From: Verrucomicrobiaceae bacterium
GTDB taxonomy: Bacteria > Verrucomicrobiota > Verrucomicrobiia > Verrucomicrobiales > Verrucomicrobiaceae
Reading direction: 5' to 3'
DNA: 64,000 nt
Assembly: GCA_016795485.1 (NCBI GenBank)
Contig: JAEUHM010000030.1
Location: 60,369 to 124,368 of the forward strand
The position numbers were made by a program, and so were the translations under genes. Shown here one piece after another: positions 6,263 through 39,447 of the stretch; the stretch's first letter is position 1, and the number at the start of each line of letters is the position of its first letter. The notes beneath the pieces are model-generated. The model was not told the origin of the DNA, made no database searches, and saw nothing but the letters and a program-made list of their open reading frames with translations.

Positions 6263-7909
6263 TTAGTCCGTGTGGCTGAGTGTCTTGAGGAACTCGATAA
6301 CGCAGCGTTTGTCTTCCTCACTGAGGTCGAGGCCGCCATCGGGGTGTTTGGCTAGGTTGGGATCAAGCGTGTCGGTGCGTTGGATGCCGTGACTGTAGTG
6401 ATTTAGCACTTCTTCCAGCGTCTTGAAGCGGCCATCGTGCATGTAGGGGGCCGTTAGGGCGATGTTGCGCAGAGTGGGGGTGACGAAGGTGCCTTTATCC
6501 AAGGCGGACTTGGTCACGCGATGTCTGCCGGTGTCTTTCTCGTCGATGGCCAGGCCATTGTTGCGAAACTGGTGATCGGTAAACAAGGCTCCTCCGTGGC
6601 AGTGGAAGCAATCGGCTCCCATGGTGCCAAGCCGTGGCTCGCGCTCGGTCATGAATAGCTCAAAGCCGCGCTGCTCATCTGCGCTGAGTTTGAGTTCGCC
6701 TCTTTGTGCGCGATCAAACTTGGAGTTGTGCGAGGTCAGAGTGAGCAAATAGGCCTCGATGGCCATACCAAGGCGCTCAGGAGTGATTTCAGGTGAACCG
6801 AAGGCCTCTTTGAACTCGCTCGAGTAAGCCCGAAGCTTCTGCATGACCCTTGGCAAAGATTCATCCATCTCGCGATGATCTTGAATGGGCACCAGAGCCT
6901 GCTCTCGCAGGGTAGTCGCCCTCCCATCCCAAAAAAACGTGTCCTTCCAGGCTAAATTGAAAAGGGGCATGGCATTCCGGTCTCCGAGGCGGCCCTCGAC
7001 TCCGGGACTGAGTCGCCTTGGGTCGCTCAGTGCGTTCTCTTTCATGTGGCAAGAACTGCAAGAGATCGTGTTGCCGCGTGAGAGGGCCGTTTCGTGGAAG
7101 AGCTTTTTGCCCAAAGCCACCCTGGCGGGCGTGAGAGGATTGTCTGCGGGCAGTCGAGGCTGTGGAAGAGTGCCTAACTTGAGTGTGAGAGGCATTTTTT
7201 CTGCCGAAGGTGCCACCGTCTCACCTTTGCCGACCTTCATCAGTCGAAAAGCCTGTTTGAGTTTGTCGCGGAGTTGATACGCCAAGGGATCGTCGTCTGC
7301 GGAATGCGTGGAGGCTCCATCTTTGATGAAGTCGATGCCTTTGAGGACGGTCGCCACATCCAACCGTACTTCTACTTCGGTCGTGCCGCTCTCATTCAAC
7401 GTAATCTCCGCTGGCAAAGAGATGCGTGTACGCATGAAGTCGTTGCCCAAATGATAGGCATAGCCACTGAGCGTGCCGTCTTTGCGTTTCCACTGGCCTT
7501 CGAGTGCCATGAAGATATACCCACCCTGCCAGGACCAGTGCAGGCCACAGACGCGAGGGTTGAGTGGATGATCCGGGCCCCACGTGGCAGGGTCGCGTTG
7601 ATTGTCCTTGGGGACGAGGCCGATTTCGAAGTTTAGCTTCTGGTAAGTTCCCGACGGAAGTCCGCTGATGAGTAAGCTTGGCCGATCCTTCGTCACCCAG
7701 CCTGCAAATCCCTCGTGACGTGCCGACTTGGTGCCGTCTGCGGACTCAAGGTTGACCTCGCTGACGAGGTAACTGAGCCTTGTCAAAGTCCAAGGTCCGG
7801 CGGCATCGTGCGTCATGATCAATTTCAAGTCCGCAGCTCCGACAGAGCAGGCGAGCGCTACCCAGCACAACAGTGTGCGCAGATGATGGGCGTTCCCTTT
7901 TGCTTGCAT
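6263..7909 (-). CDS. Di-heme cytochrome c peroxidase (CCP/MauG/MbnH family) with an N-terminal ~270-aa extension domain.
   Basis: Two CXXCH motifs (CSSCHMKEN and CFHCHGG) in the typical CCP arrangement, plus FWDGRA and PYMHDGRFKTLEEV motifs. I place the start at the internal Met (7909) that precedes a signal peptide. Confidence 0.8.
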   Translation of the reverse strand: MQAKGNAHHLRTLLCWVALACSVGAADLKLIMTHDAAGPWTLTRLSYLVSEVNLESADGTKSARHEGFAGWVTKDRPSLLISGLPSGTYQKLNFEIGLVPKDNQRDPATWGPDHPLNPRVCGLHWSWQGGYIFMALEGQWKRKDGTLSGYAYHLGNDFMRTRISLPAEITLNESGTTEVEVRLDVATVLKGIDFIKDGASTHSADDDPLAYQLRDKLKQAFRLMKVGKGETVAPSAEKMPLTLKLGTLPQPRLPADNPLTPARVALGKKLFHETALSRGNTISCSSCHMKENALSDPRRLSPGVEGRLGDRNAMPLFNLAWKDTFFWDGRATTLREQALVPIQDHREMDESLPRVMQKLRAYSSEFKEAFGSPEITPERLGMAIEAYLLTLTSHNSKFDRAQRGELKLSADEQRGFELFMTEREPRLGTMGADCFHCHGGALFTDHQFRNNGLAIDEKDTGRHRVTKSALDKGTFVTPTLRNIALTAPYMHDGRFKTLEEVLNHYSHGIQRTDTLDPNLAKHPDGGLDLSEEDKRCVIEFLKTLSHTD

Positions 7910-8004
7910 GGGGAGATGGTAGCCGAGTTCAGTGCGTTGCGCAAAGGCGAGCAAATGCCGGGCACCCCGCTTGCCTTTCGTCTCGTTCGCTGCCATTTGT
8001 GGTG

Positions 8005-9246
8005 ATGTTTCGCCAGCTTGTCGCCGCTGTTGTCTTTGCCACGAGCGTGGAGGCAGACGTGCCGCTACCGCCACAGGTGACCAATCCTCTCTCTGCGACT
8101 GAGGCTTGGAACGTGATCCGGCTCGCCACAGAGAACGTGGAGCGACTGGTCCGGGAGTCGCGACCGCTGGAGATCGCGTCCCAGGTGTCGTTACTCAGTC
8201 CGTCGTTGCGAGTGCTTGGCCGCAGTCCGGTGAAAGCTGGTTTTGAAGCCAGGGTGGCAGACGAATCCGCTGTGGCGTTCAAGTTGGTCAATGTCATGGC
8301 AAAGGAAAGCATGACGGAGAACGCAGCCGCAATGCCTGGTCTGCTGGGGCAGTTGAAAAAGAGCATCGGAAGTATCGCTGAAGCGTTTGAATCCGACATC
8401 ACGACGGCAGAAGTGTTTCATTGTCCTCTGCATACGGATTATCTCCTCACAACGCGAGATGGAGCGACTCAGAAGTGTGGACGCTGCCAGCACAAGCTTC
8501 AGGTCCGGCGCATTCCTTATAGCTTCATCTATGCGAGAGCCGAGCAGCCTGCTTTGAGCATGGCAACCAGCCGCCAAGGCGCGCAACTAACCATCAAGCT
8601 TGCGCATAAGGACGGGAGACCAGTGGTGACAGAGGATCTGTGGCCCGTGCATACGGAGACCGTCCAAGTAGTAGTGTTTGGGCCAGAGTATGGGCATTTC
8701 ACTGCCACGCCGTCAGCTTCGGCAGGGGATTACACTTGTGACTTGGCTGTGAGCGCTCCAGGAACTTATCGCTACTTTGTTGGATTAACACCTGCTGTGA
8801 CGGGACTCCCAGAGTATCACTCTGAGACGTTCGTGATTGATGGCTCAGCAGAAGCTTCGTCGTCTGAATCTACAGACGTGCTCACCGCTAAAGTCGACGG
8901 GTATGCGGTAAATATTGCGGTGGCGGGAAAGAGCGGGAATCGACTGCGCGCTGGTAGAACCCAGGCATTGCACGTGCAGTTTCAGGATGCTCAGGGACAG
9001 CCACTGGTACGCCTGGAGCCGCTCTTGCAAGCTTATGCGCACATTGATGCGTTCTATGAGGGCACCGAGACACTCCAGCAACTCCATCCAATGGGAGGAG
9101 ATATCTTGCGCGATGATCTCAGAGGTGGCCCAGGCCTCGCTTTCAAGATCTACTCGCCCGAGGCAGGCACCCTGAAGGCATATCTGCGCTTTAAGGTGGA
9201 TGGACGTGTCCTTGTGGCACCCCTTTGCCTTCAGGTTCTGCCGTGA
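8005..9246 (+). CDS. Secreted protein with a CusF/CusB-type heavy-metal-binding motif (HCPLHTDY...KCGRCQHKL) and a C-terminal beta-rich domain.
   Basis: Signal-peptide-like N-terminus from the Met at 8005. The C-P-x-H ... C-x-x-C arrangement resembles the metal-binding domain of copper/silver efflux adaptor proteins. Confidence 0.5.
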   Translation: MFRQLVAAVVFATSVEADVPLPPQVTNPLSATEAWNVIRLATENVERLVRESRPLEIASQVSLLSPSLRVLGRSPVKAGFEARVADESAVAFKLVNVMAKESMTENAAAMPGLLGQLKKSIGSIAEAFESDITTAEVFHCPLHTDYLLTTRDGATQKCGRCQHKLQVRRIPYSFIYARAEQPALSMATSRQGAQLTIKLAHKDGRPVVTEDLWPVHTETVQVVVFGPEYGHFTATPSASAGDYTCDLAVSAPGTYRYFVGLTPAVTGLPEYHSETFVIDGSAEASSSESTDVLTAKVDGYAVNIAVAGKSGNRLRAGRTQALHVQFQDAQGQPLVRLEPLLQAYAHIDAFYEGTETLQQLHPMGGDILRDDLRGGPGLAFKIYSPEAGTLKAYLRFKVDGRVLVAPLCLQVLP

Positions 9247-28760: not shown

Positions 28761-29087
28761 TTAGTGGATCGTTTCGTCGTGTACCCATTGTGCATAAGGC
28801 AGAGAGACCTCCGAGGGCGCAAATGCGACAATCTCTGGCACTTCGTACGGGTGCAGTTTCTTCATGTGGTCTTCGAACGCTGGCATCAGTTCCCTTGATG
28901 TTTTGAAGATCCCCAGGACCTCTTGGGTACGCTCAACGGCTCCCTTCCAGCGATAGATCGACTCAATGCTGGGTATGAGATTCACGCAGGCAGCGAGTTG
29001 CGACTCCACCATCTGCGTGCCAATCTCCCGTGCGATGGCGGCATCAGGAAAGGTGACCCATACGATTCGAATATCCATGTCCGGCAT
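28761..29087 (-). CDS. cutA: Divalent-cation tolerance protein CutA.
   Basis: IVWVTFPD...LAACVN...YRWKG...YEVPEI motifs. The ~108-aa length from the internal Met fits CutA1. Confidence 0.75.
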   Translation of the reverse strand: MPDMDIRIVWVTFPDAAIAREIGTQMVESQLAACVNLIPSIESIYRWKGAVERTQEVLGIFKTSRELMPAFEDHMKKLHPYEVPEIVAFAPSEVSLPYAQWVHDETIH

Positions 29088-29090
29088 TCT

Positions 29091-30233
29091 ATGAAGTCTG
29101 GTTTCTTCGACAAGCTTCTCAAGCGGGTAGACCGCCTTGAGCCGGGCGAGATTCAGCATTTTCTAGCGGAACTCCTCCACGAGAAGGGATTGCTTGAGAA
29201 GGTGTTTCAGGCACTCCAGGAAGGCGTTATCCTTTTGGACAATGAGGGAAAGGTAACCTACGTCAATCGTGCAGCCTGCGGGCTATTTGGCTTCGATCTG
29301 GATGCGGTTTTGGGTAAGTCATTGGGAGAAGGGATGCGAGGCATTGACTGGAAAGAGTTACGCAAGCCCGGCACGGTCATTAGTCGCGACCTTGAGATCA
29401 CTTATCCGGAGAATCGCTACCTTAACTTCTACATCACATCCATTGATGACACGCAGGAGCATGGGTTTGTGATGCTGATTCGGGACGTCACTCAAAGTCG
29501 CAAACTAACGCAGGAGAAGATCGAAAGTGAACGCATCAGTGCCTTTACGTTGTTGGCTGCTGGAGTTGCCCACGAGTTGGGCAATCCGCTGAATGGAATC
29601 ACCATTCACCTCCAACTGATGGAGCGGGCATTGAAGAAGATGGGCAAATCTGCAGAGAAAATGCAGAAGCATCTCGATGTGGCGAATGATGAGATCAGGC
29701 GTCTAGATCTCATTATCTCGCAGTTCTTAGCGGCTATTCGGCCCACTCAGCCGCAGCTACAGCGGGTGGATGTGAACGAGTTAATCTCTGAAAGCGCGCG
29801 GTTTTTGACCCCTGAACTCGAGAAGAATCACGTCAGACTGCGCCTTGAGTTACGCTCTGACACGCCGCACATGAACTTGGATGCCACCCAGATGAAACAG
29901 GCATTCTACAATCTGATACGCAATGCCTGCCAGGCCATGCCGGACGGAGGTGAACTTGTCGTAACAACGGCCCACAATGATTTTGAGGTCATTGTGAGCT
30001 TCCAGGATTCTGGAAAAGGCATCTCACCAGAGAACATGGGCAATCTTTTTCAGCCGTTCTTTAGCACACGCAAAACCGGAACGGGCCTTGGGCTGTTGAT
30101 TGTCAGGCGGATCGTGCGTGAGCACGGTGGTGAGATCAGCATCGGTAGCAGGGAAGGTAAAGGCACGAGTATCAGCATCATTTTGCCGCTAGTGGAGAAA
30201 AGAGTCCGTTTGTTAGGAGCTGGAGAAGTTTAG
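29091..30233 (+). CDS. PAS-domain sensor histidine kinase (orphan, no adjacent response regulator).
   Basis: PAS region, H-box HELGNPLNGI, and N, G1 and G2 boxes (GTGLGLLIVRRIVREHGG). I place the start at the first ATG at 29091 to avoid the cutA coding region on the opposite strand. Confidence 0.75.
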   Translation: MKSGFFDKLLKRVDRLEPGEIQHFLAELLHEKGLLEKVFQALQEGVILLDNEGKVTYVNRAACGLFGFDLDAVLGKSLGEGMRGIDWKELRKPGTVISRDLEITYPENRYLNFYITSIDDTQEHGFVMLIRDVTQSRKLTQEKIESERISAFTLLAAGVAHELGNPLNGITIHLQLMERALKKMGKSAEKMQKHLDVANDEIRRLDLIISQFLAAIRPTQPQLQRVDVNELISESARFLTPELEKNHVRLRLELRSDTPHMNLDATQMKQAFYNLIRNACQAMPDGGELVVTTAHNDFEVIVSFQDSGKGISPENMGNLFQPFFSTRKTGTGLGLLIVRRIVREHGGEISIGSREGKGTSISIILPLVEKRVRLLGAGEV

Positions 30234-30314: not shown

Positions 30315-30977
30315 TTGGGCATTCTTCTCCCGATGCACGAACTCTTCCAGGAAGCCTTCTCCATTCACAACCTGCCTGTGACAGTGTTGTTGGGTTTGGT
30401 TCTTGGCTATTGGCTTTTGGTGGTGATCGGGTTCATTGATGCAGACGACAGCGGCATTGACATCAATGGCGATGGCCATGCGGACTTTGGCGATCATCAT
30501 TCCGCTGAAGGTGGCTTCTGGTTGTCTGCTGGTAAGTTTCTGCATCTTGGTGTAGTTCCATTCATGATCGTCGTCAGCGTGCTGGCGCTGCTGATGTTCC
30601 TCTTCTCCGTCCTGGCCAACTACTACTTCAATGGCCAGCCGGGAGCCCGAAGCGCAACGGTTGCATTGCTTTGGCTCATCCCCAATTTTCTGGTGAGCGT
30701 GATCATCACCCGCATCGTCATCACGCCCGTAAAGAAGCTGTTTGCTTCGTTTCAGGACCGAATCGAAGCGGAAACCAAGGTCATTGGCAAAGAAGGACTA
30801 GTCGCCTCCATGCAAGTCGACCGCACGTACGGCCAGGTTGAAATCACCACTGACGGTGCGCCTCTCCTTCTCAATGCACGTGTTTCGGAAGGCCACGACG
30901 CCATTCCAAAAGGCACAAGTGTCATTGTTTTCGACATCTCAGAAGATCACTCTCACTACCTCATCCGACCCTTATGA
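30315..30977 (+). CDS. NfeD-like / YqiJ-like membrane protein (flotillin partner) with a C-terminal OB-fold.
   Basis: N-terminal TM helices, C-terminal beta-rich domain. ATGA overlap with the flotillin gene, matching the conserved yqiJ-yqiK-type pairing. Confidence 0.6.
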   Translation: MGILLPMHELFQEAFSIHNLPVTVLLGLVLGYWLLVVIGFIDADDSGIDINGDGHADFGDHHSAEGGFWLSAGKFLHLGVVPFMIVVSVLALLMFLFSVLANYYFNGQPGARSATVALLWLIPNFLVSVIITRIVITPVKKLFASFQDRIEAETKVIGKEGLVASMQVDRTYGQVEITTDGAPLLLNARVSEGHDAIPKGTSVIVFDISEDHSHYLIRPL

Positions 30978-33028
30978 TAGACCAAGCACTACTCTTCACC
31001 ATTGGCGCAGGCATTTTTGTCGTTTTCGCCATCTTCATCATGCTCTCTCGGTTTTTCCGCAAGGTGCAGCAAGGCCAAGCGCTGGTGCGCACTGGGATGC
31101 GGGGAGAAGCCGTCACCTTTTCGGGAATGATGGTCTACCCCATCATCGATCAGGCCGAGTTGATGGACATCTCGGTCAAACGTCTTGAGATTGAGCGCAG
31201 TGGCGCAGAAGGCCTCATATGTAAAGACAACATGCGTGCTGACATTAAGGTGGCGTTCTTCGTTCGTGTGAACAAAACACCACAGGATGTGCTGCGAGTG
31301 GCGCAGTCCGTAGGTTGTCAGCGCGCCTCGAATGTAGACGCCATCCGCACTTTGTTTGACGCCAAGTTTTCAGAAGCACTGAAGACAGTGGGCAAGCAGT
31401 TCGACTTCGTGCAGCTCTATGATGAGCGAAATCGTTTCAAAGACGAAATCCTCAAAGTCATAGGCACGGATTTGAATGGATTCATTCTCGACGACTGCGC
31501 CATCGACTTCCTGGAGCAGACTGCCATCGAGCATCTTGATCCAGACAACATTTTGGATGCAGAGGGCATCAAAAAGATCCACGAACTGACGGCAGAGCAG
31601 GCTAAGCTCTCCAATCAGATCCAGCGCGACAAGGAAAAGGTGATGAAGCAGCAGGACGTGGTCGCTCGGGAGGCGGTGCTTGAGCTTGAGCGCCAGCTTG
31701 CCGAAACCGAAGCCAAGCAGAAGCGAGATGTGGAGTCCGTCAAGGCCCGTGAACAGGCAGAAACCATGAAGGTGCAGGAAGAGGAGCGCCTGAAAGCCGA
31801 GAAAGCACGCATTGCCGCTGAAGAGGAGATCAATGTAGCCACTCAGAACAAGGATCGTCAGATTCTCGTCGCTCAGCGTAACAAAGAGCGCACGGATGCT
31901 GTGGAGGTCGAGCGTGTGACACGTGATCGCGACCTGGAGATCATCGAACGCGAGCGTGTGACCACCTTGAAGGCCATCGAGAAAGAGAAGGCTGTCGAAG
32001 TGGAGAAGAAGAACATTCAGGACGTCATCAAAGATCGCGTCATGTTAGAGAAGACGGTTGTCGTTGAGCAGCAGAAGATGAAAGACACCGAGGCGTTTGC
32101 TACCGCCGACCGGGAGAAGCAGGTGGCACTCACCAACGCGGAGAAACTCGCCCAGGAGCAACTCATTCAAAAGATCAAAGAAGCCGAAGCGGCCAAGGAA
32201 GCAGCCAAACTGCTCGCCGAACAAGAAGCGCTGAAGGCGATCAAAGCTGCAGAGGCTGCAAAACAAGCTGCAGAGCTGCATGCTCAGGAGTTGATGACAC
32301 TCGCAGAGGCTCGCCAGGAAGCATCTTCCAAGGACGCAGCTGCGGAGAAAGCCCTTGCGGAAGCGATTGCGGCCAAGTCTGCCGCCGCAGGACTCGGGGA
32401 AGCCCAGGTGCTGCTGGCCAAGGCGGATGCCGCACGCAAGCAAGGCGAGGCCGAAGCCGAAGTCACTCGTTTGAAGCTCGCCGCCGATGCGGAAGGCATC
32501 ACCAAGAAAGCCGAGGCAATGAAGCTTCTGGAAAACGCCGGTCGTGAACATGAGGAGTTCAAGCTCAACCTGGAGAAGCAGAAGGCAGTGGAACTCGCCC
32601 AGATACACATTCAGAAAGACATCGCTGCCGCCCAGGCCGGTGTGCTGGGAGAGGCCATGAAGAGCGCCAAGATCGAGATTGTGGGTGGCGAAAGCCAGTT
32701 CTTCGACAAGATCACCAATGCGATTGGCAATGGTCGCGCCATCGACCGGATGGTGGAAGGCAGCCGCACGCTGACCGACGTGAAGGAGACATTCTTCAAT
32801 GGCGATCCTGAGTATTTCAAAGCTCAGCTGAAGGGCCTTGTGGATCAGTTTGGCCTCACTGCTGAGGACACAAAGAACCTGACGATCAGCGCTCTGCTCA
32901 TCAAGCTACTAGGCCTTAATGCCGACAGCGGTACACAAAGCAAGCTGACTGGAATGCTGGGCGCGATGGCGCGCTTTGGATTGGCCGAAGAAGCTGCAAG
33001 CGCTGTGTTGGGCGGGAAGAGGAAGTGA
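30974..33028 (+). CDS. Flotillin-like SPFH/band-7 protein (YqiK/FloT family) with a long Ala/Glu/Lys-rich coiled-coil tail.
   Basis: N-terminal TM, SPFH domain, extended EA-repeat coiled coil. Confidence 0.8.
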   Translation: MIDQALLFTIGAGIFVVFAIFIMLSRFFRKVQQGQALVRTGMRGEAVTFSGMMVYPIIDQAELMDISVKRLEIERSGAEGLICKDNMRADIKVAFFVRVNKTPQDVLRVAQSVGCQRASNVDAIRTLFDAKFSEALKTVGKQFDFVQLYDERNRFKDEILKVIGTDLNGFILDDCAIDFLEQTAIEHLDPDNILDAEGIKKIHELTAEQAKLSNQIQRDKEKVMKQQDVVAREAVLELERQLAETEAKQKRDVESVKAREQAETMKVQEEERLKAEKARIAAEEEINVATQNKDRQILVAQRNKERTDAVEVERVTRDRDLEIIERERVTTLKAIEKEKAVEVEKKNIQDVIKDRVMLEKTVVVEQQKMKDTEAFATADREKQVALTNAEKLAQEQLIQKIKEAEAAKEAAKLLAEQEALKAIKAAEAAKQAAELHAQELMTLAEARQEASSKDAAAEKALAEAIAAKSAAAGLGEAQVLLAKADAARKQGEAEAEVTRLKLAADAEGITKKAEAMKLLENAGREHEEFKLNLEKQKAVELAQIHIQKDIAAAQAGVLGEAMKSAKIEIVGGESQFFDKITNAIGNGRAIDRMVEGSRTLTDVKETFFNGDPEYFKAQLKGLVDQFGLTAEDTKNLTISALLIKLLGLNADSGTQSKLTGMLGAMARFGLAEEAASAVLGGKRK

Positions 33029-33054
33029 TGTTGAACCGCTAGTGGTTTAAGATC

Positions 33055-36000
33055 ATGTCCCAACCCGACTCCAAGCTCGAAGCTGGTGCCTACGAGGTCA
33101 TCCGGCAGCGTTTGTCGAAACACGCTGCCGAGTTGTCCACGCGATTGGAGCGTCTAAACACCGAACGTAAGGCGATCTTTGGCGGTATTGATCTGGCGCT
33201 GATCTCTACGTCTAGACTGACGACAGAGAACAACTGCGTGCCTCGCGACATGGTCGCGATCGGACCGTCACGTTTCTTGTTTGGCTACAACGTTCATCTT
33301 GGGCTCCGGTCCACGATGCGGATTGAGGATGTGTTCGCTGTGTATGACTATCAGAACAGCGATCACAGCTTCCATCATCACAAAAATGGACTGCTGGATG
33401 ATCCGGCGTTCGCGGAGGACTTTGCTTACATCTACAAGTTCTACAAGAACGCCTCATTCCTGAAGTTCCATCGCTTGGGGCCACACCTTTACATGGTGAT
33501 GCAGGCCGGTCGTGATGTATCCGAGGTGAAGACCTTTAAATGGCTGGTCAACGATGATGCCGGCACGCTGAAGTATCTGGGTAACCGCTTTGATCACGAG
33601 TTCGTCTTTCCGCCGCAGCATGAGCTCGAGTGGAAGCGTGCAAGACGCGAAATGTACCGTGAAGGTGAGCATTCGCATGTTAGCATTGATGATCGTGTCT
33701 TCGTAGAGACCATCGGTGGTGACCTCACGGTCAAAGTGGAAAACAACACAGACAGCGGCAAAGGCATCTACTCTGAGCCAGTGGAAAACAGAGATCAGAC
33801 TCTGGACGATGCCGAGTTTTGGTATGCAATCGCTGGAAGCCTCGTTCTCCTCCGCGTTCTACCTTATCAGGAAAAACAGTATCGCCATTTGCTCTTCAAT
33901 GAGCGCACTCAGGAAGTGCATCGGATTGATTCGCTCGGAGAGGCATGTCTTCTGCTGCCGGATGATCACGGCGTGCTATTCACGGATGGCTACGCTCTGC
34001 AAACTGGTGCCGTGAAGCGCTTGCCTACGGAGCGAAAGGGCATGAAGTTTGAGCGCCGGATTAGCTCGGCGAACGGCGAGGATACGCTGTTTGTCTTCCA
34101 CAATGTTGAGCAGGGCGAGTATCAGTTGCTTCACTACAACTTGATCGCTCAGGACCTTAGCACGCCGATGTTCGCGCATGGCTACAGCCTCTTTGCGAAC
34201 GGCGAGATGCTGCTGGTGAATGGAGATCCTGAACCGCGCAAGCACCACGTGGTGCAGTCATGGCGAACACCCATCGTCACGGAGAGCGTGGCAAATGAGG
34301 CGCACTCGAAGAGCTTCCTGGCTCAGATTGGCAATGCAGACCTCGTTCGCGCCATGGCGGAGTGCCGTGGAGTCCTCACTCTACTGGGCAAGGAGGACAG
34401 TTTCTCCGGCCTTTATGTCGATCTCGCACGGCGCACTACCGACATCGCGGATGCCTACTTCTGGATTGACCGGGAGGAGGCACATCGCATCAAGGAAGTG
34501 CTGCTAGAGATCAAGGGAGCCGCAGAGTCAGCCTTGGCCGAGTTTGAAAAAGTGCGCGCCATGCGCCGATCTGCTGCCGCGCAAACGGAGCAACTGAAAG
34601 CCAAGGTCGATGCGGCGATCAGCATGGCCCGGAGCACTCAGCCAGATGATATTCTAGGCTACGTGAAGCAACTGACGACTCTGAGAGAGTTGCGTGGTCA
34701 GGCGATTGCACTCAAGGACGTGCGCTATGTGGATCTCGATGCCGCAGGTGTCATGGACAAGACACTGTCCGAGACAGCAGACAAGGTCAGCGAGCAATGC
34801 ATCACGTTTCTGCTCAAACCGGAAGCACTTGAGCCTTACAAAGCACAGATTGGTGCGCAAAAGGCAAGGATTGGGTCTATTGGCAAGGTAACGGATGCTG
34901 ACGAACTGGCGTCAGAACTGGACAAGGCTGCGGGAGAGTTGGAGATGCTCACCAGCGTGGTCAGTGGACTGAAGATCAAGGACGCCACAGAGACCACGCG
35001 GATCGTTGAGAGCATCTCGGAGCTGTATGCCCAGCTCAACCAAGTCCGCTCGCTAGTGCGCAACAAACGGAGTGAGCTCGCACGCCAGGAAGGGGCTGCA
35101 GAGTTTCAGGCGCAGATGAGCCTCCTCAGCCAGAGCGTGCTGAACTACCTTGAGGCCTGCACATCACCGGAGAAGTGTGACGAAGCACTCACCCGCGTGA
35201 TGGTTCAGGTGGAAGAAGTAGAGGGCAAGTTCTCTGACTTCGATGAGTTCGTGTCGGAGATCGCCAACAAGCGCGAGGAGATCTATTCTGCTTTCCAAGG
35301 CAAGCGCACCAGCCTTGTGGAGGCACGTAACAAGCGCTGTGCCGCTCTGGGACAGAGCGCCGAGCGCATACTGTCCGGGCTGAGAAACAAAGCGGCTGGA
35401 TTTGCCAAGACCGAAGAGGTGCATGCTTATCTCGCCAGCGATGTCATGGCGGCCAAACTGCGTGATCTCATCGAAGAACTGCGTGGTTTGGGTGATGGCG
35501 TTCGCGCGGATGAACTCACCACTCGTCTCAAGACGTTGCGCGAAGACGCACTGAAGCAGATTCGTGACAAAGCAGAGTTGTTTGCCGATGGCGGTGACCT
35601 CATTCAGTTCGGTCGGCACAAGTTTACCGTCAATCGCCAGCCGCTGGAGCTTACTATGCTACTGCGTGATGGTGCTCTGTGGTTTCATCTGAGCGGGACC
35701 AGATACTTTGAGAAGGTCGAAAGCGCAGAACTGGAGCCGCTCAAGGCAGTGTGGGAGCAGAACGTCATCTCCGAGGATGCGAGCGTCTATCGCGCGGAGT
35801 ATTTGGCGTGGAAGTTTCTTCAAGCACACCCGGATAAACAACAGGTTGCGGTGGAAGAGGTCCGGGCGTTCATGCATGAGCGTTACCACGAGGGATATAC
35901 CAAGGGTGTGCATGATGCCGATGGTGCACTGATCTTAAATGCACTGCTCCCTATGCATCACAGCCTGGGATTGCTGCGGCATTCCTCCATGGCACGGGCT

Positions 36001-37974
36001 GAAGCGCTCGTGTTCTGGAAAGGCTGGGCGGACGGACCTGATAAAGTGGCCTTTGCGGCACGGATGCGGGCACGCGGGAAGATGAAGAGTGCGTTCGGTA
36101 CGGGGGTAGACGGTGTTCTGCCTTCACTTCCGGGAAACATTGCCACTGCGGCTTTGCGCTGTCTGTGTGATGAGTTGATGGCGTCCGCCACACTGCCGCA
36201 CACGCGTTCTGCGGCGGCCGTGGAGCTCGTGAAAGCATTCAAGAAGACGCTGGTCACGAAACGCAGCACTGCTGACTTCAATGAAGTTCTCTCTGCCCTC
36301 GCCGATCAGCCGCAGACCCAGTTTGAGATCGCTTATGAGTGGATCAAGGCCGCTCACCCTGAGGCGGAAGACAGTTTGGCACAAGAAGCCGCCGCTTTGT
36401 TGCTCTACGATGATGCAGGGGCGGGAGTCGCTTCCACATCGAAGACAGAGCTTGCTGGATTGACTGGAAGTCACTCACGAATCACGAACGGCATGTTGCC
36501 GCTCGACTACCACGAGTTCACGGAACGGCTCAGTCGCTATGAGAGCACGACAGCGGCTGCATTTGACCGCTTCAGCGCGTTGAAGCATGAACTCATCACG
36601 AAGAAACGAAACGCGCTTCGGCTTGAGCAGTTCAAGGCCGGAGTTTTGAGTTCATTTGTCCGCAACCGGCTGCTTGATCAAGTCTATCTGCCCATCATCG
36701 GTGCCAACCTGGCTAAGCAAATCGGCGCGGCGGGTGCTGATACGCGGACGGATCGCATGGGCTTGTTGCTGCTCATTTCACCACCCGGCTACGGCAAGAC
36801 CACATTGATGGAGTATGTGGCCAATCGCCTGGGAATCACCATGGTGAAGGTCAACGGACCTGCACTCGGTCATCAAGTGACGTCGTTGGATCCCGCCGAG
36901 GCTCCAAACGCCAGCGCGCGTGAAGAAGTGGAGAAACTGAATCTCGCTTTCGAGATGGGTGACAACGTGATGATCTATCTGGACGACATCCAGCATACCC
37001 ATCCAGAGTTTTTGCAGAAGTTCATCCCGTTGTGCGATGGCACGCGCAAAATTGAAGGCGTGTTCAAAGGACAGGCGCGGACGTATGATTTGCGAGGTCG
37101 AAAAGTTGCTGTGGTGATGGCCGGCAACCCCTACACCGAAATCGGTGGACGTTTCCAGGTGCCGGACATGCTGGCCAACCGCGCGGACACTTACAATCTC
37201 GGCGAGATCCTCGGTGGTCACCAGGAGGCGTTCAAAGACAGCTACATTGAGAACACCATGACCAGCAACCCTGTGCTGGCCCGCATTGCAGCCCGCAGTC
37301 ATGCGGATGCACTCAGTGTGCTGAAGATCGCCCAGACCGGCAGCCGAGAAGGCATTGAATATGAGGGCAACTACAGTGCAGAGGAAATCAACGATGCGGC
37401 GGAAGTCATGAAGCGCCTGCTGCAAGTCAGGGAGACCATTCTGCGAGTGAACGAGGAGTACATTCGCTCAGCGGCCCAAGAGGACGCCTATCGCACAGAA
37501 CCTCCGTTCAAACTGCAAGGCAGCTATCGGAACATGAACAAGATCGCGGAGAAGATTCAGCCGATCATGACCGAGGCTGAGGTGCAGCAACTCATCACCG
37601 ATCACTATCGCAGCGAATCCCAAACGCTTAGCAAGGCCGCTGAGGCCAACTTGCTCAAGTGGCGCGAGATCACAGGCCAACTCGACGAAGCCGGGGATGC
37701 CCGATGGAAGGAGATCCGGCGCACTTTTGGTCGGAACCTGCTTTTGGGTTCATCTGACGATCCGGTTGGCAAGATTAGCGGCCAGCTCAGTGCCCTGGTG
37801 GAAGCCGTGTCTAAGCCCACCCTCAGTGAGCAGACGGTGGAGCATCTGAAAAAGATCATCGAAGGCCTGCGAGCTGTGCCTGTGAACGTGGACATCAACG
37901 TGCTACCCGTAGAGCGAAGGGACGACGATGATGTGCCAGTGAGAACTGACACGACAGTTCGTCAGGATATTTGA
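33055..37974 (+). CDS. Giant (1639 aa) uncharacterised protein with a C-terminal AAA+ ATPase module (RuvB/Lon-like) and a long coiled-coil-rich N-terminal region.
   Basis: Walker A LLLISPPGYGKTTLMEYVANRLGITMVKVNGPAL at about nt 36780. Walker-B-like MIYLDDIQH. Sensor-1-like VAVVMAGNP. No N-terminal P-loop, which argues against SMC/RecN. Starts 27 nt after the flotillin gene. Confidence 0.6.
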   Translation: MSQPDSKLEAGAYEVIRQRLSKHAAELSTRLERLNTERKAIFGGIDLALISTSRLTTENNCVPRDMVAIGPSRFLFGYNVHLGLRSTMRIEDVFAVYDYQNSDHSFHHHKNGLLDDPAFAEDFAYIYKFYKNASFLKFHRLGPHLYMVMQAGRDVSEVKTFKWLVNDDAGTLKYLGNRFDHEFVFPPQHELEWKRARREMYREGEHSHVSIDDRVFVETIGGDLTVKVENNTDSGKGIYSEPVENRDQTLDDAEFWYAIAGSLVLLRVLPYQEKQYRHLLFNERTQEVHRIDSLGEACLLLPDDHGVLFTDGYALQTGAVKRLPTERKGMKFERRISSANGEDTLFVFHNVEQGEYQLLHYNLIAQDLSTPMFAHGYSLFANGEMLLVNGDPEPRKHHVVQSWRTPIVTESVANEAHSKSFLAQIGNADLVRAMAECRGVLTLLGKEDSFSGLYVDLARRTTDIADAYFWIDREEAHRIKEVLLEIKGAAESALAEFEKVRAMRRSAAAQTEQLKAKVDAAISMARSTQPDDILGYVKQLTTLRELRGQAIALKDVRYVDLDAAGVMDKTLSETADKVSEQCITFLLKPEALEPYKAQIGAQKARIGSIGKVTDADELASELDKAAGELEMLTSVVSGLKIKDATETTRIVESISELYAQLNQVRSLVRNKRSELARQEGAAEFQAQMSLLSQSVLNYLEACTSPEKCDEALTRVMVQVEEVEGKFSDFDEFVSEIANKREEIYSAFQGKRTSLVEARNKRCAALGQSAERILSGLRNKAAGFAKTEEVHAYLASDVMAAKLRDLIEELRGLGDGVRADELTTRLKTLREDALKQIRDKAELFADGGDLIQFGRHKFTVNRQPLELTMLLRDGALWFHLSGTRYFEKVESAELEPLKAVWEQNVISEDASVYRAEYLAWKFLQAHPDKQQVAVEEVRAFMHERYHEGYTKGVHDADGALILNALLPMHHSLGLLRHSSMARAEALVFWKGWADGPDKVAFAARMRARGKMKSAFGTGVDGVLPSLPGNIATAALRCLCDELMASATLPHTRSAAAVELVKAFKKTLVTKRSTADFNEVLSALADQPQTQFEIAYEWIKAAHPEAEDSLAQEAAALLLYDDAGAGVASTSKTELAGLTGSHSRITNGMLPLDYHEFTERLSRYESTTAAAFDRFSALKHELITKKRNALRLEQFKAGVLSSFVRNRLLDQVYLPIIGANLAKQIGAAGADTRTDRMGLLLLISPPGYGKTTLMEYVANRLGITMVKVNGPALGHQVTSLDPAEAPNASAREEVEKLNLAFEMGDNVMIYLDDIQHTHPEFLQKFIPLCDGTRKIEGVFKGQARTYDLRGRKVAVVMAGNPYTEIGGRFQVPDMLANRADTYNLGEILGGHQEAFKDSYIENTMTSNPVLARIAARSHADALSVLKIAQTGSREGIEYEGNYSAEEINDAAEVMKRLLQVRETILRVNEEYIRSAAQEDAYRTEPPFKLQGSYRNMNKIAEKIQPIMTEAEVQQLITDHYRSESQTLSKAAEANLLKWREITGQLDEAGDARWKEIRRTFGRNLLLGSSDDPVGKISGQLSALVEAVSKPTLSEQTVEHLKKIIEGLRAVPVNVDINVLPVERRDDDDVPVRTDTTVRQDI

Positions 37975-38037: not shown

Positions 38038-39447
38038 ATGAGTGCGATGTTGATTGTCCTACTCGTGTTGGTGGTTGCCGCCAGCATTGGCCTCGTTGTC
38101 TCTGTGCGACTAAACAAGGTGCGCGGTCGTGACCTGAGAGGACTCCAGGAGGAGCAGGAGGACATCGTTGGCACCGAGCGCCGCATGTTCGGCTATCTGC
38201 ACGACTTGAGCGTTGCCATTGCGGGAGAACAGCGAGAGGCCACTTTGTATCGGCTGATCGTCGAGGGAGCTGTGAAAGTGACCGCCAGTGCTGGCGGTGC
38301 GTTTTATGTGTTTGATGAAGCTGCAAATGCGATGGTTCCCCGTCATGTTTCTTCAGACTGCACACCGCTGATCACACTGCCAGGCTCTGCTTCGACTCAA
38401 CAGCCAGGTGGGCTTTTGAGTCAGTTGAGATTGCAGCGTGTCTCCGCAGATGATTCGATGCTGGGCGATGTGCTTGCGGATCAGACGGCGAGGATGGTAA
38501 AGAATCTGCCTGGGTATTCAGGTCATACCGCATTGGTGGGCCCAGTCACGTCTGGGAAGAAACGGCTGGGCGTGCTCGCAGTGACCCTCCCGCCTGGAGA
38601 GCAGCAATACGACGCCAATGACATGGAAATCTTTAGCGCTCTTGCTGAGCAGAGCGCTTTCGCTCTGGCGAGTGCTGCGGCTCACGTCGAGATGGCGCAG
38701 AAGCGAAAGCTGGAACAGGAGCTCAGCTATGCGAGCGAGGTGCAGCGCGTGCTGCTTCCAGACTCTCAGCCTAAGTTGAATGGCTTCTCGATCTTTGGCA
38801 GAAACCGTGCTGCAAAGATCCTCAGCGGCGACTTCTTTGATTACGTGGTGCCAGACCCTAATCGATTTGGCGTGATCATCGCCGATGTCTCCGGCAAGGG
38901 CTTCCCCGCAGCATTGATCGCGGCGACTTGCCGTAGCTCCGTGCGCGCGCACGCCATTGCCCAATCCTCGCCATCCTCAGTGCTTAGTGCGGTGAATCGG
39001 CAAATCTTCGACGACATCAATGAGGACATGTTCGTGAGCGCGATCTACCTGATTTTGGAGGAGGGTGGCGATATGATCCGACTGGCGAGAGCGGGTCACC
39101 CCAATCCTTTCCTTTGGAGGAAAGCCACTGGGGAGGTGGAAGAAATCACTGCTGGGGGATTGGGGCTCGGGATTGACGAAGGCGAGGTGTTTGATCGTGT
39201 GAGCAAAGATGCCGTGATCCAACTTCAGCCGGGAGACTGCCTTTTGACTTACACGGACGGCGTCACCGAAGCTGAAAACGCGGAGGGTGAGGAGTTTGGA
39301 GAGGACCGGCTCCGGCAGATGTTGGCCAAGCTAGCTGGAGATGGCCCTGCAACTCTGGTGAACGCTATAGTTGCTGCTGTCGACGAGTTCTGCGGCAGGA
39401 TTTCCCCGGCCGATGACATCACGCTGGTAGCTATCCAGCGCCAGTGA
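38038..39447 (+). CDS. Membrane-anchored GAF-domain PP2C/SpoIIE-type serine phosphatase (RsbU-like).
   Basis: N-terminal TM, central GAF-like region, and C-terminal PPM motifs (GDFFDY, IADVSGKG, TDGVTEAEN). Confidence 0.75.
   Translation: MSAMLIVLLVLVVAASIGLVVSVRLNKVRGRDLRGLQEEQEDIVGTERRMFGYLHDLSVAIAGEQREATLYRLIVEGAVKVTASAGGAFYVFDEAANAMVPRHVSSDCTPLITLPGSASTQQPGGLLSQLRLQRVSADDSMLGDVLADQTARMVKNLPGYSGHTALVGPVTSGKKRLGVLAVTLPPGEQQYDANDMEIFSALAEQSAFALASAAAHVEMAQKRKLEQELSYASEVQRVLLPDSQPKLNGFSIFGRNRAAKILSGDFFDYVVPDPNRFGVIIADVSGKGFPAALIAATCRSSVRAHAIAQSSPSSVLSAVNRQIFDDINEDMFVSAIYLILEEGGDMIRLARAGHPNPFLWRKATGEVEEITAGGLGLGIDEGEVFDRVSKDAVIQLQPGDCLLTYTDGVTEAENAEGEEFGEDRLRQMLAKLAGDGPATLVNAIVAAVDEFCGRISPADDITLVAIQRQ

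Follow-up and report, generated by a model that had tools for sequence, protein, structure and literature searches.

What does a bacterium do with a protein of 1639 residues, predicted to be cytoplasmic, that carries one ATPase module close to its C-terminal end? This question is raised by an uninterrupted ATG-to-stop reading frame (33055..37974, forward strand) in a stretch of 64,000 nucleotides from a Verrucomicrobiaceae bacterium (contig JAEUHM010000030.1, positions 60,369 to 124,368), which is referred to here as the window. A preliminary description, made from the letters of the DNA, presented the product as a giant coiled-coil-rich protein with a lone AAA+ domain. The present analysis placed it in a catalogued family with the composition DUF3686-DUF7902-AAA+, which carries the NCBI name 'DNA repair ATPase', and found its gene to be the third of a cassette that also encodes a YqiJ/YuaF-like membrane protein and a YqiK-like flotillin. 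In at least seven bacterial lineages the linkage to the flotillin is nearly obligatory, and the giant protein very probably works together with the flotillin pair at the membrane. On balance, its probable role at the inner membrane is to use ATP to remodel or regulate assemblies of flotillin (and of PspA).

Linkage to the flotillin gene pair

The three genes of the cassette are co-directional, with a 4-nt overlap between the first two and a gap of 26 nt before the giant gene (Table 1). The neighbourhood was compared across 80 related genome loci. Of the 63 loci in which the upstream sequence exceeds 3 kb, 61 have a flotillin gene upstream of the giant gene and on the same strand (37-82% identity, median gap 221 nt). 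The upstream sequence exceeds 5 kb in 61 loci, and in 48 of these a YqiJ/YuaF-type gene was detected there by tblastn. In Bacteroidota the operon is extended upstream by PspA (PspA_IM30, E 4e-42) in 16 loci and by CesT_Tir_1 (E 7e-56) in 14, often together with a divergent helix-turn-helix regulator. Neither PspA nor CesT is encoded within the 64-kb window. Four Bacteroidota loci (L018, L021, L046 and L066) have inserts of 1.5-2.4 kb between the flotillin and giant genes, each holding two to four small lineage-specific genes. Many of the insert-encoded proteins are hydrophobic at the N-terminus, as secreted or membrane proteins would be, and no similarity is shared across genera.

The first gene encodes a protein with three transmembrane (TM)-like hydrophobic segments, recognized by hydropathy, and a C-terminal OB-like soluble domain (residues ~145-214). 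Its ATG start agrees with the family N-terminus MxELLxxAF. A profile built from 23 orthologues matched Escherichia coli YqiJ over 185 columns (hhalign probability 97.4%, E 1.5e-11), and the C-terminal part of the same profile matched the soluble domain of Bacillus subtilis YuaF (PDB 2k14, E 0.017).

The second gene product, which has a single N-terminal TM segment by hydropathy, was matched by no Pfam or NCBIfam model even at E <= 10, and the same was true of two orthologues from other phyla. Its identity as a flotillin therefore rests on BLAST against E. coli YqiK (31% identity over 465 aa, E 2e-49). Apparently this flotillin clade is missed by the Band_7/Flot models or by the HMMER composition filter, which would act on the E/K/A-rich coiled coil, and automated annotation will consequently leave the gene 'hypothetical'. 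The last 219 residues (466-684) are unlike the C-terminus of YqiK (E 0.59). This region is kept in orthologues across phyla, with alignments reaching residue ~678.

Family membership and distribution

The giant protein is 100% identical to GenBank MBL9115626.1, 'MAG: DNA repair ATPase [Verrucomicrobiaceae bacterium]', and more than 5000 proteins match it at E <= 1e-5. It has the full-length PF12458 match, PF25472 in the helical region, one C-terminal AAA+ module and the flotillin and YqiJ/YuaF-type genes upstream, all of which mark the family. The same set of Pfam domains was found in all of the 120 homologues listed, save P0112, a truncated entry without DUF3686. Among library representatives at 50% identity, at least 415 clusters match residues 1-1200 at E <= 1e-30; these are colinear proteins of ~1600-1900 aa, down to 27% identity. 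A scan with one genome per species yielded at least 584 loci, distributed amongst Verrucomicrobiota, Planctomycetota, Bacteroidota, Desulfobacterota, Clostridia, Myxococcota and Chitinispirillaceae. Within Verrucomicrobiota, identity follows taxonomy, from 68% down to 50%.

Two full-length homologues (P0018 and P0041) bear the JGI name 'phage shock protein A'. The giant protein has no PspA_IM30 match, and an hhalign comparison with a bona fide operon PspA gave a probability of 0.6%, so that a PspA-like segment was rejected and the JGI label is a coiled-coil artefact. Another homologue (P0158, 1345 aa) carries NfeD1b_N at residues 74-215, ahead of complete DUF3686 and DUF7902 domains. This could be a genuine fusion of an NfeD protein with the giant protein or two merged gene calls; if genuine, it would be an independent tie of the family to SPFH/NfeD systems.

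Neither the family nor the operon is new as a discovery from this window. Both are already known in silico from Ravi et al. (2024; mSystems, PMC11237479), the only description found, and the exact sequence is in GenBank. That study reported an operon joining CesT/Tir-PspA with a 'novel AAA+ ATPase', a flotillin and a YqiJ/YuaF 3TM protein, noted that abbreviated operons lacking PspA (flotillin, YqiJ/YuaF and ATPase) are distributed more widely, and proposed ATP-dependent sub-membrane dynamics. The preliminary description had named, as grounds for its refutation, a profile match of the entire polypeptide to a known family of assigned function. Such a match exists in a formal sense only: the family (DUF3686, DUF7902 and AAA) is indeed known, but the name assigned to it has no evidence behind it. 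The flotillin operon link and the catalogued family were absent from that description, as was the N-terminal beta-propeller considered next.

Domain architecture of the giant protein

Table 1. Positions of the cassette, of the predicted domains and motifs of the giant protein, and of other genes mentioned in the text (window coordinates).
Feature	Coordinates	Strand	Residues and remarks
Three-gene cassette	30333..37974	+	
Gene 1, YqiJ/YuaF-type (NfeD-like) small membrane protein	30333..30977	+	214 aa; stop overlaps start of gene 2 (ATGA)
Gene 2, YqiK-type flotillin	30974..33028	+	684 aa; TM, SPFH/band-7, E/K/A-rich coiled coil, family-specific C-terminal ~220 aa
Gene 3, giant protein (beta-propeller, helical bundles, AAA+; the first two predicted)	33055..37974	+	1639 aa; predicted cytoplasmic; MBL9115626.1
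DUF3686 (PF12458)	33130..34461	+	26-469; predicted divergent ~7-bladed beta-propeller
Helical region, predicted spectrin-repeat-like bundles of long helices	34315..35154	+	421-700, continuing to ~850 by sequence; includes DUF7902
DUF7902 (PF25472)	34822..35076	+	590-674
Conserved middle region	35602..36624	+	~850-1190; invariant columns in 29-sequence alignment
AAA+ module	36667..37338	+	~1205-1428; alpha0, five-stranded core, hairpin and helical lid
Walker A, ISPPGYGKTTL	36775..36807	+	1241-1251; K1248 is the P-loop lysine; invariant
Walker B, IYLDDIQH	36973..36996	+	1307-1314; D1310, D1311, I1312, Q1313 and H1314 invariant
Predicted pre-sensor-1 beta-hairpin	37048..37089	+	1332-1345
Sensor-1, VVMAGNP, with PDMLANRAD	37111..37188	+	1353-1359 (N1358) and 1370-1378; R1376 invariant
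RxEPPFKLQGSYRNM, family-specific	37492..37536	+	1480-1494; near-invariant; C-terminal helical extension
C-terminal tail	37822..37974	+	~1590-1639
PAS-HisKA histidine kinase	28923..30233	+	
GAF and SpoIIE/PP2C phosphatase	38038..39447	+	
MbnP and MauG-like domain protein	6263..8074	-	602 aa

The Pfam match to DUF3686 covers the profile at full length (positions 1-448 of 448; E 4.4e-174, 579.6 bits against a gathering score of 25), and DUF7902 was matched with E 1.7e-26 (92.6 bits against 26). An AlphaFold2 model of residues 1-700, based on 30 homologues (mean pLDDT 84), contains a long helix at 10-42, about 29 beta strands between 48 and 404 and long helices from 421 onwards, with pLDDT mostly 80-93 across the strand-rich DUF3686 part. 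In Foldseek searches of the PDB with the strand-rich part, all the top matches were beta-propellers (Elp1, Sec12, DCAF1, IFT-A subunits, Ycf48, Vps11 and PON1/paraoxonase), with E-values of 2e-7 to 1e-4 and a probability of 1.0, although the TM-scores were only 0.3-0.46. On this model the N-terminal ~400 residues are predicted to form a divergent beta-propeller and not a coiled coil. The invariant residues E273, R277, R290, D292, N340-G-E-D343 and H398 would lie on one face of this propeller. The earlier view of the polypeptide as coiled-coil-rich thus holds for the helical stretch at ~420-850 but not for residues 48-404.

The middle region (~850-1190) had no Pfam or PDB match in sequence and profile searches. 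It contains the invariant residues G853, E907, G951-x-H953-D954-x-D956 and E1111, and the motifs GxHRFxVN and EGYxxGVHDxDA. Solved structures were also sought by sequence with the single protein, with a full-length profile of 29 sequences and with a profile of the AAA+ part; the propeller, helical and middle regions found no match, and only the P-loop region (~70 residues) of RuvB, Rix7, p97 and Rpt3 was matched.

Residues 1101-1639 were modelled with AlphaFold2 at a pLDDT of 73 for the segment as a whole and 77-90 for its core; this model contains the AAA+ core and lid and, beyond the lid, a further helical extension. The peptide RxEPPFKLQGSYRNM in this extension, one of the two most conserved peptides chosen in the genome-collection scan, is possibly a sensor-2 element or an inter-subunit contact. 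Matches from other phyla mostly stop at residues 1560-1610. The last ~50 residues (…RAVPVNVDINVLPVERRDDDDVPV…) are conserved within Verrucomicrobiota only and were modelled with pLDDT below 50. No TM segment was recognized in the giant protein by hydropathy (maximum KD19 1.16), whereas both of its cassette partners are membrane proteins.

The AAA+ module and its relationships

The Walker A, Walker B and sensor-1 motifs quoted in the preliminary description are present. In an alignment of 29 homologues (30-48% identity), SPPGYGKTTL, D1310-D1311-I-Q-H, G1357-N1358-P-Y and the R1376 of PDMLxNR did not vary. The AAA+ motifs are not chance matches, because the Pfam AAA model matched above its gathering score (E 5e-8, 33.9 bits against 21.2) and the motif columns are invariant across homologues. 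The segment GITMVKVNGPAL occupies residues 1260-1271. In the AlphaFold2 model sensor-1 lies on beta4 and PDMLANRAD on the next helix, and R1376 is a candidate arginine finger. With K1248, D1310/D1311, N1358 and R1376 all invariant and a core and lid in the model, the protein has what defines the AAA+ superfamily. Two departures from the usual motifs were observed: the Walker A opens with Ser (SPPGYGKT) and not Gly, and the acidic pair of the Walker B is an invariant Asp-Asp in place of the usual Asp-Glu.

No second motif of the form [AG]xxxxGK[ST] or GxxGxGK occurs in the whole protein, which restricts the P-loop to residues 1241-1251. A hidden or degenerate second AAA+ domain in residues 850-1190 was ruled out by comparison with an AAA+ profile (hhalign probability 0.2%, no match). 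The single C-terminal module that had been proposed is therefore correct, and it is intact. The earlier rejection of an SMC/RecN identity was also borne out, and Rad50 can be rejected with it, given the lack of a P-loop elsewhere, an N-terminus predicted to be a beta-propeller and the absence of any SMC profile match in Pfam.

A resemblance to the RuvB/Lon/Cdc6-type clade had also been suggested, and RuvB was indeed the best single match by sequence and among the best by structure. Among PDB sequences it came first with phmmer (E 7e-5), and Foldseek with the AAA+ model returned RuvB (E 4e-6) together with Ycf2/FtsHi, ClpA/B, MCM and CbbQ/NorQ at about 1e-5. Shared with RuvB are a GPPG-type P-loop context, the beta2 segment 'NGPAL' and a hairpin before sensor-1. 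The sequence match, however, extends from Walker A to beta2 only, in alignments of ~50-70 residues, and the NCBIfam RuvB equivalogs scored 25.3 and 23.4 bits against cut-offs of 282 and 299. Neither the neighbouring genes that were profiled nor the neighbour clusters conserved across the 80 related loci include ruvA, ruvC or another ruv gene, and a RuvB identity was rejected. Pfam AAA, AAA_5, AAA_22 and RuvB_N each matched 16 of the 16 family members examined with similar E-values. Since neither this voting nor Foldseek picks out a clade, the giant protein is treated here as a separate AAA+ lineage.

Classical AAA proteins (Rix7/NVL, p97) were matched by profile (E 4e-7), in an alignment that ends after beta2. 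The loop aligned with pore-loop 1 (NGPALGH-x-VTSLDP) has no conserved aromatic residue, the position being variable, and a hairpin is predicted at residues 1332-1345. Assignment to the classical AAA clade (Vps4, FtsH, p97, katanin) was rejected on these grounds; on a medium-confidence model and an alignment, the hairpin and the non-aromatic position would separate the giant protein from that clade.

The suggested analogy with midasin or dynein did not survive. The AAA_5 profile of the MoxR/midasin/dynein group does align from Walker A to sensor-1 in 16/16 members, but this match is generic, with E-values no better than those of AAA, AAA_22 and RuvB_N. There is also no VWA/MIDAS partner, and the giant protein has one AAA module as against six concatenated ones, its middle region not being a degenerate AAA+ domain. 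The segment 'GNPY...G..F.IPDML.NR' presumably resembles the NP motif of MoxR-type proteins.

Proposed function and alternative explanations

The conserved partners of the giant protein are membrane-anchored, and a mechanism may be envisaged as follows. The flotillin would be anchored by its N-terminal TM helix with the NfeD-like 3TM partner alongside, and the oligomeric SPFH scaffold built from the two would lie against the cytoplasmic side of the inner membrane. The soluble giant protein would be recruited to this scaffold, its propeller and spectrin-like arm contacting the family-specific C-terminal region of the flotillin. It would oligomerise through the AAA+ module, and ATP binding and hydrolysis would power the building, dismantling or reshaping of the scaffold and of its clients, which in Bacteroidota would include PspA. 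The output would form part of a membrane or envelope stress response. We infer the flotillin contact, the oligomerisation, the remodelling activity and the stress context. The C-terminal ~220 residues of the flotillin are a plausible candidate for the docking site, because this region is conserved among giant-linked flotillins and yet unrelated to the YqiK C-terminus. That the protein is specifically an ATP-driven remodeller of the scaffold, and not simply a partner of it, is put forward more tentatively, as somewhat short of probable.

Precedents exist for parts of such a mechanism. An SPFH scaffold operates with an AAA+ machine in FtsH-HflK/C (PMC13220708), and the B. subtilis SPFH protein YdjI links PspA to the membrane (PMC8581546).

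Several observations weigh against this proposal. The flotillin has no need of a giant partner in E. coli, where yqiJK occurs without the giant gene. Two loci (L023 and L052) have an intact giant gene and neither a flotillin nor a YqiJ-like gene within ~8 kb on either side; the partners of these two genes may lie elsewhere in the genome, or the genes may have been orphaned. A classical substrate-threading unfoldase is argued against by two features taken together, the invariant Asp-Asp Walker B and a pore loop devoid of a conserved aromatic residue. The propeller assignment rests on low TM-scores, and the surface through which giant protein and flotillin would interact is a guess. The ~340 residues of the middle region, with their invariant His, Asp and Glu, could hold a different activity altogether. 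Finally, no experimental work on the family was found in the searchable literature.

A motor accounts for the Asp-Asp Walker B and the missing aromatic residue no better than does a slow ATPase or a nucleotide switch. This bears on the possibility that the protein is a nucleotide-dependent switch or scaffold, in which the propeller and the spectrin-like arm would form a sub-membrane lattice or tether on flotillin domains, comparable to a coat or a cytoskeletal element, and ATP would only gate assembly. Some 1200 of the 1639 residues have scaffold-type folds outside the ATPase (the predicted beta-propeller and spectrin-like bundles), and the Foldseek matches include propellers of coat and tether proteins (IFT-A, Vps11, clathrin heavy chain and Sec12). 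These are generic propeller matches, however, with TM-scores of 0.1-0.46, and hydrolysing enzymes typically conserve their catalytic positions to the extent seen here, where K1248, N1358 and R1376, all such positions but the Walker B glutamate, are invariant. Such a switch is considered unlikely.

Lower still stands a role in membrane-protein quality control, in which a flotillin cage would corral clients and an AAA+ hexamer would pull them out, in the manner of an FtsH-HflK/C complex without its protease. The SPFH-AAA+ precedent (PMC13220708), the resemblance of the N-terminal part of the AAA+ domain to classical AAA proteins (Rix7/NVL, p97; profile E 4e-7) and the NfeD1b_N domain fused to one homologue (P0158) are in line with such an extractor. 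It is nevertheless improbable for a protein with no protease domain, TM anchor or aromatic pore loop, with no conserved protease gene in its operon, and with a classical-AAA similarity that stops after beta2.

Giant coiled-coil ATPases are common in phage-defence systems, and for this reason the cassette was also considered as a membrane-associated anti-phage or abortive-infection system with the ATPase as its sensor or effector. Weak matches were obtained to models for IetA, LmuB and Ppl (E 4e-4 to 5e-3), and the distribution of the family is patchy yet with 43-49% identity across phyla, which suggests horizontal transfer. The matches to PADLOC-DB 2.0 and NCBIfam models are nonetheless far below threshold and confined to P-loop or coiled-coil stretches (IetA E 0.002 over 29 residues, LmuB E 0.005, Ppl 18 bits against 1000). 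The products of genes 1 and 2 matched no PADLOC or NCBIfam defence model, and Pfam gave no match to an effector profile, be it nuclease, protease, TIR, pore-forming or other. The surroundings of the cassette are of housekeeping type, none of the window open reading frames (ORFs) tested matched a defence or mobile-element profile, and no homologue was found in 2.9 million viral contigs. Furthermore, identity tracks taxonomy within Verrucomicrobiota, and the operon partners are the envelope-stress genes PspA and CesT. A defence role is thus very improbable.

The reading as a DNA-repair ATPase comes from the NCBI product name and from the Pfam description of DUF3686 ('ATPase involved in DNA repair'), and it is scarcely credible. 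Beyond these labels it has only a weak similarity to RuvB around the P-loop in its favour, and there the equivalogs score 23-25 bits against cut-offs of 282-299. Pfam revealed neither a DNA-binding nor a nuclease domain, no repair gene is conserved nearby across the 80 loci, the conserved partners are membrane proteins, and no paper was found that names DUF3686 or PF12458.

Remodelling or regulation of flotillin assemblies accordingly remains the reading that we favour. We know of no dedicated ATPase experimentally tied to bacterial flotillins, and the giant-ATPase family is an obvious candidate for the dedicated ATPase of flotillin/PspA dynamics. A bolder proposal, which is offered as a doubtful but coherent possibility, is that the giant protein is the missing energy-consuming part of bacterial flotillin biology. 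As a hexamer it would be an ATPase of ~1 MDa, docking on YqiK-type flotillin through its propeller and spectrin-like arm and driving assembly, turnover or membrane repair, with PspA as a further object in Bacteroidota, as a bacterial counterpart, in function, of Vps4 or NSF for scaffolds of the SPFH/ESCRT-III type. The His/Asp-rich middle domain might supply a second activity.

The re-analysis corrects the misleading product name 'DNA repair ATPase', which should not be propagated, and delimits the domains and the catalytic residues that can be mutated (K1248, D1310/D1311, N1358 and R1376). Linkage to flotillin that is near-obligatory across at least seven lineages makes a simple genetic test worthwhile.

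Other genes of the window

The cassette is flanked by a PAS-HisKA histidine kinase just upstream and a protein with GAF and SpoIIE/PP2C phosphatase domains downstream, the latter starting 63 nt past the giant stop codon with no terminator-like site between. In none of the related loci, close relatives included, was either found beside the cassette. Both were therefore rejected as parts of the system and may contribute local regulation at most. A scan of the cassette for promoters and terminators gave counts not above the shuffled expectation. The surroundings in the window are an ordinary chromosomal region with housekeeping genes (FTHFS, PEPCK, LptF/G); no tRNA gene was found in the window and no mobile-element gene among the ORFs profiled.

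Far upstream, on the reverse strand, lies a 602-aa ORF whose product has an MbnP domain at residues 91-251 (E 7.5e-24) followed by a di-haem cytochrome c peroxidase/MauG-like domain at 316-459 (E 1.5e-51). It resembles an MbnP-MbnH pair fused in one polypeptide.

Comparison with known systems

Homologues of the first two cassette genes form the E. coli yqiJ-yqiK and B. subtilis yuaF-floT pairs. The E. coli locus differs in having no third gene, sibD/ibsD following yqiK, and the window flotillin is 131 aa longer than YqiK, with an unrelated C-terminal region.

FtsH-HflK/C, and the mitochondrial m-AAA-prohibitin complex, likewise have an AAA+ ATPase that functions at the inner membrane together with a cage-like scaffold of the SPFH family. 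The giant protein differs from FtsH in belonging to another AAA+ lineage and in lacking an M41 protease domain and TM helices, while FtsH lacks the propeller and the about 800 helical residues of the giant protein.

The action of Vps4 on ESCRT-III is a precedent for remodelling by an AAA+ protein. As with Vps4/CdvC on ESCRT-III/PspA polymers, an AAA+ ATPase is here genetically linked to a membrane-remodelling polymer, namely PspA in the Bacteroidota operon. In contrast to Vps4/CdvC, the giant protein has no MIT domain match in Pfam and no aromatic pore loop, and it has a predicted pre-sensor-1 hairpin. PspA is also missing from most giant-gene loci, and there is no PspA-like segment in the giant protein itself.

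The closest counterpart is the operon described by Ravi et al. (2024; PMC11237479). The window differs from it in holding the abbreviated form, in the flanking PAS histidine kinase and GAF-PP2C phosphatase, and in the extra C-terminal tail of ~50 aa found in verrucomicrobial members. Domain order, family profiles, operon partners and gene order are the same in both.

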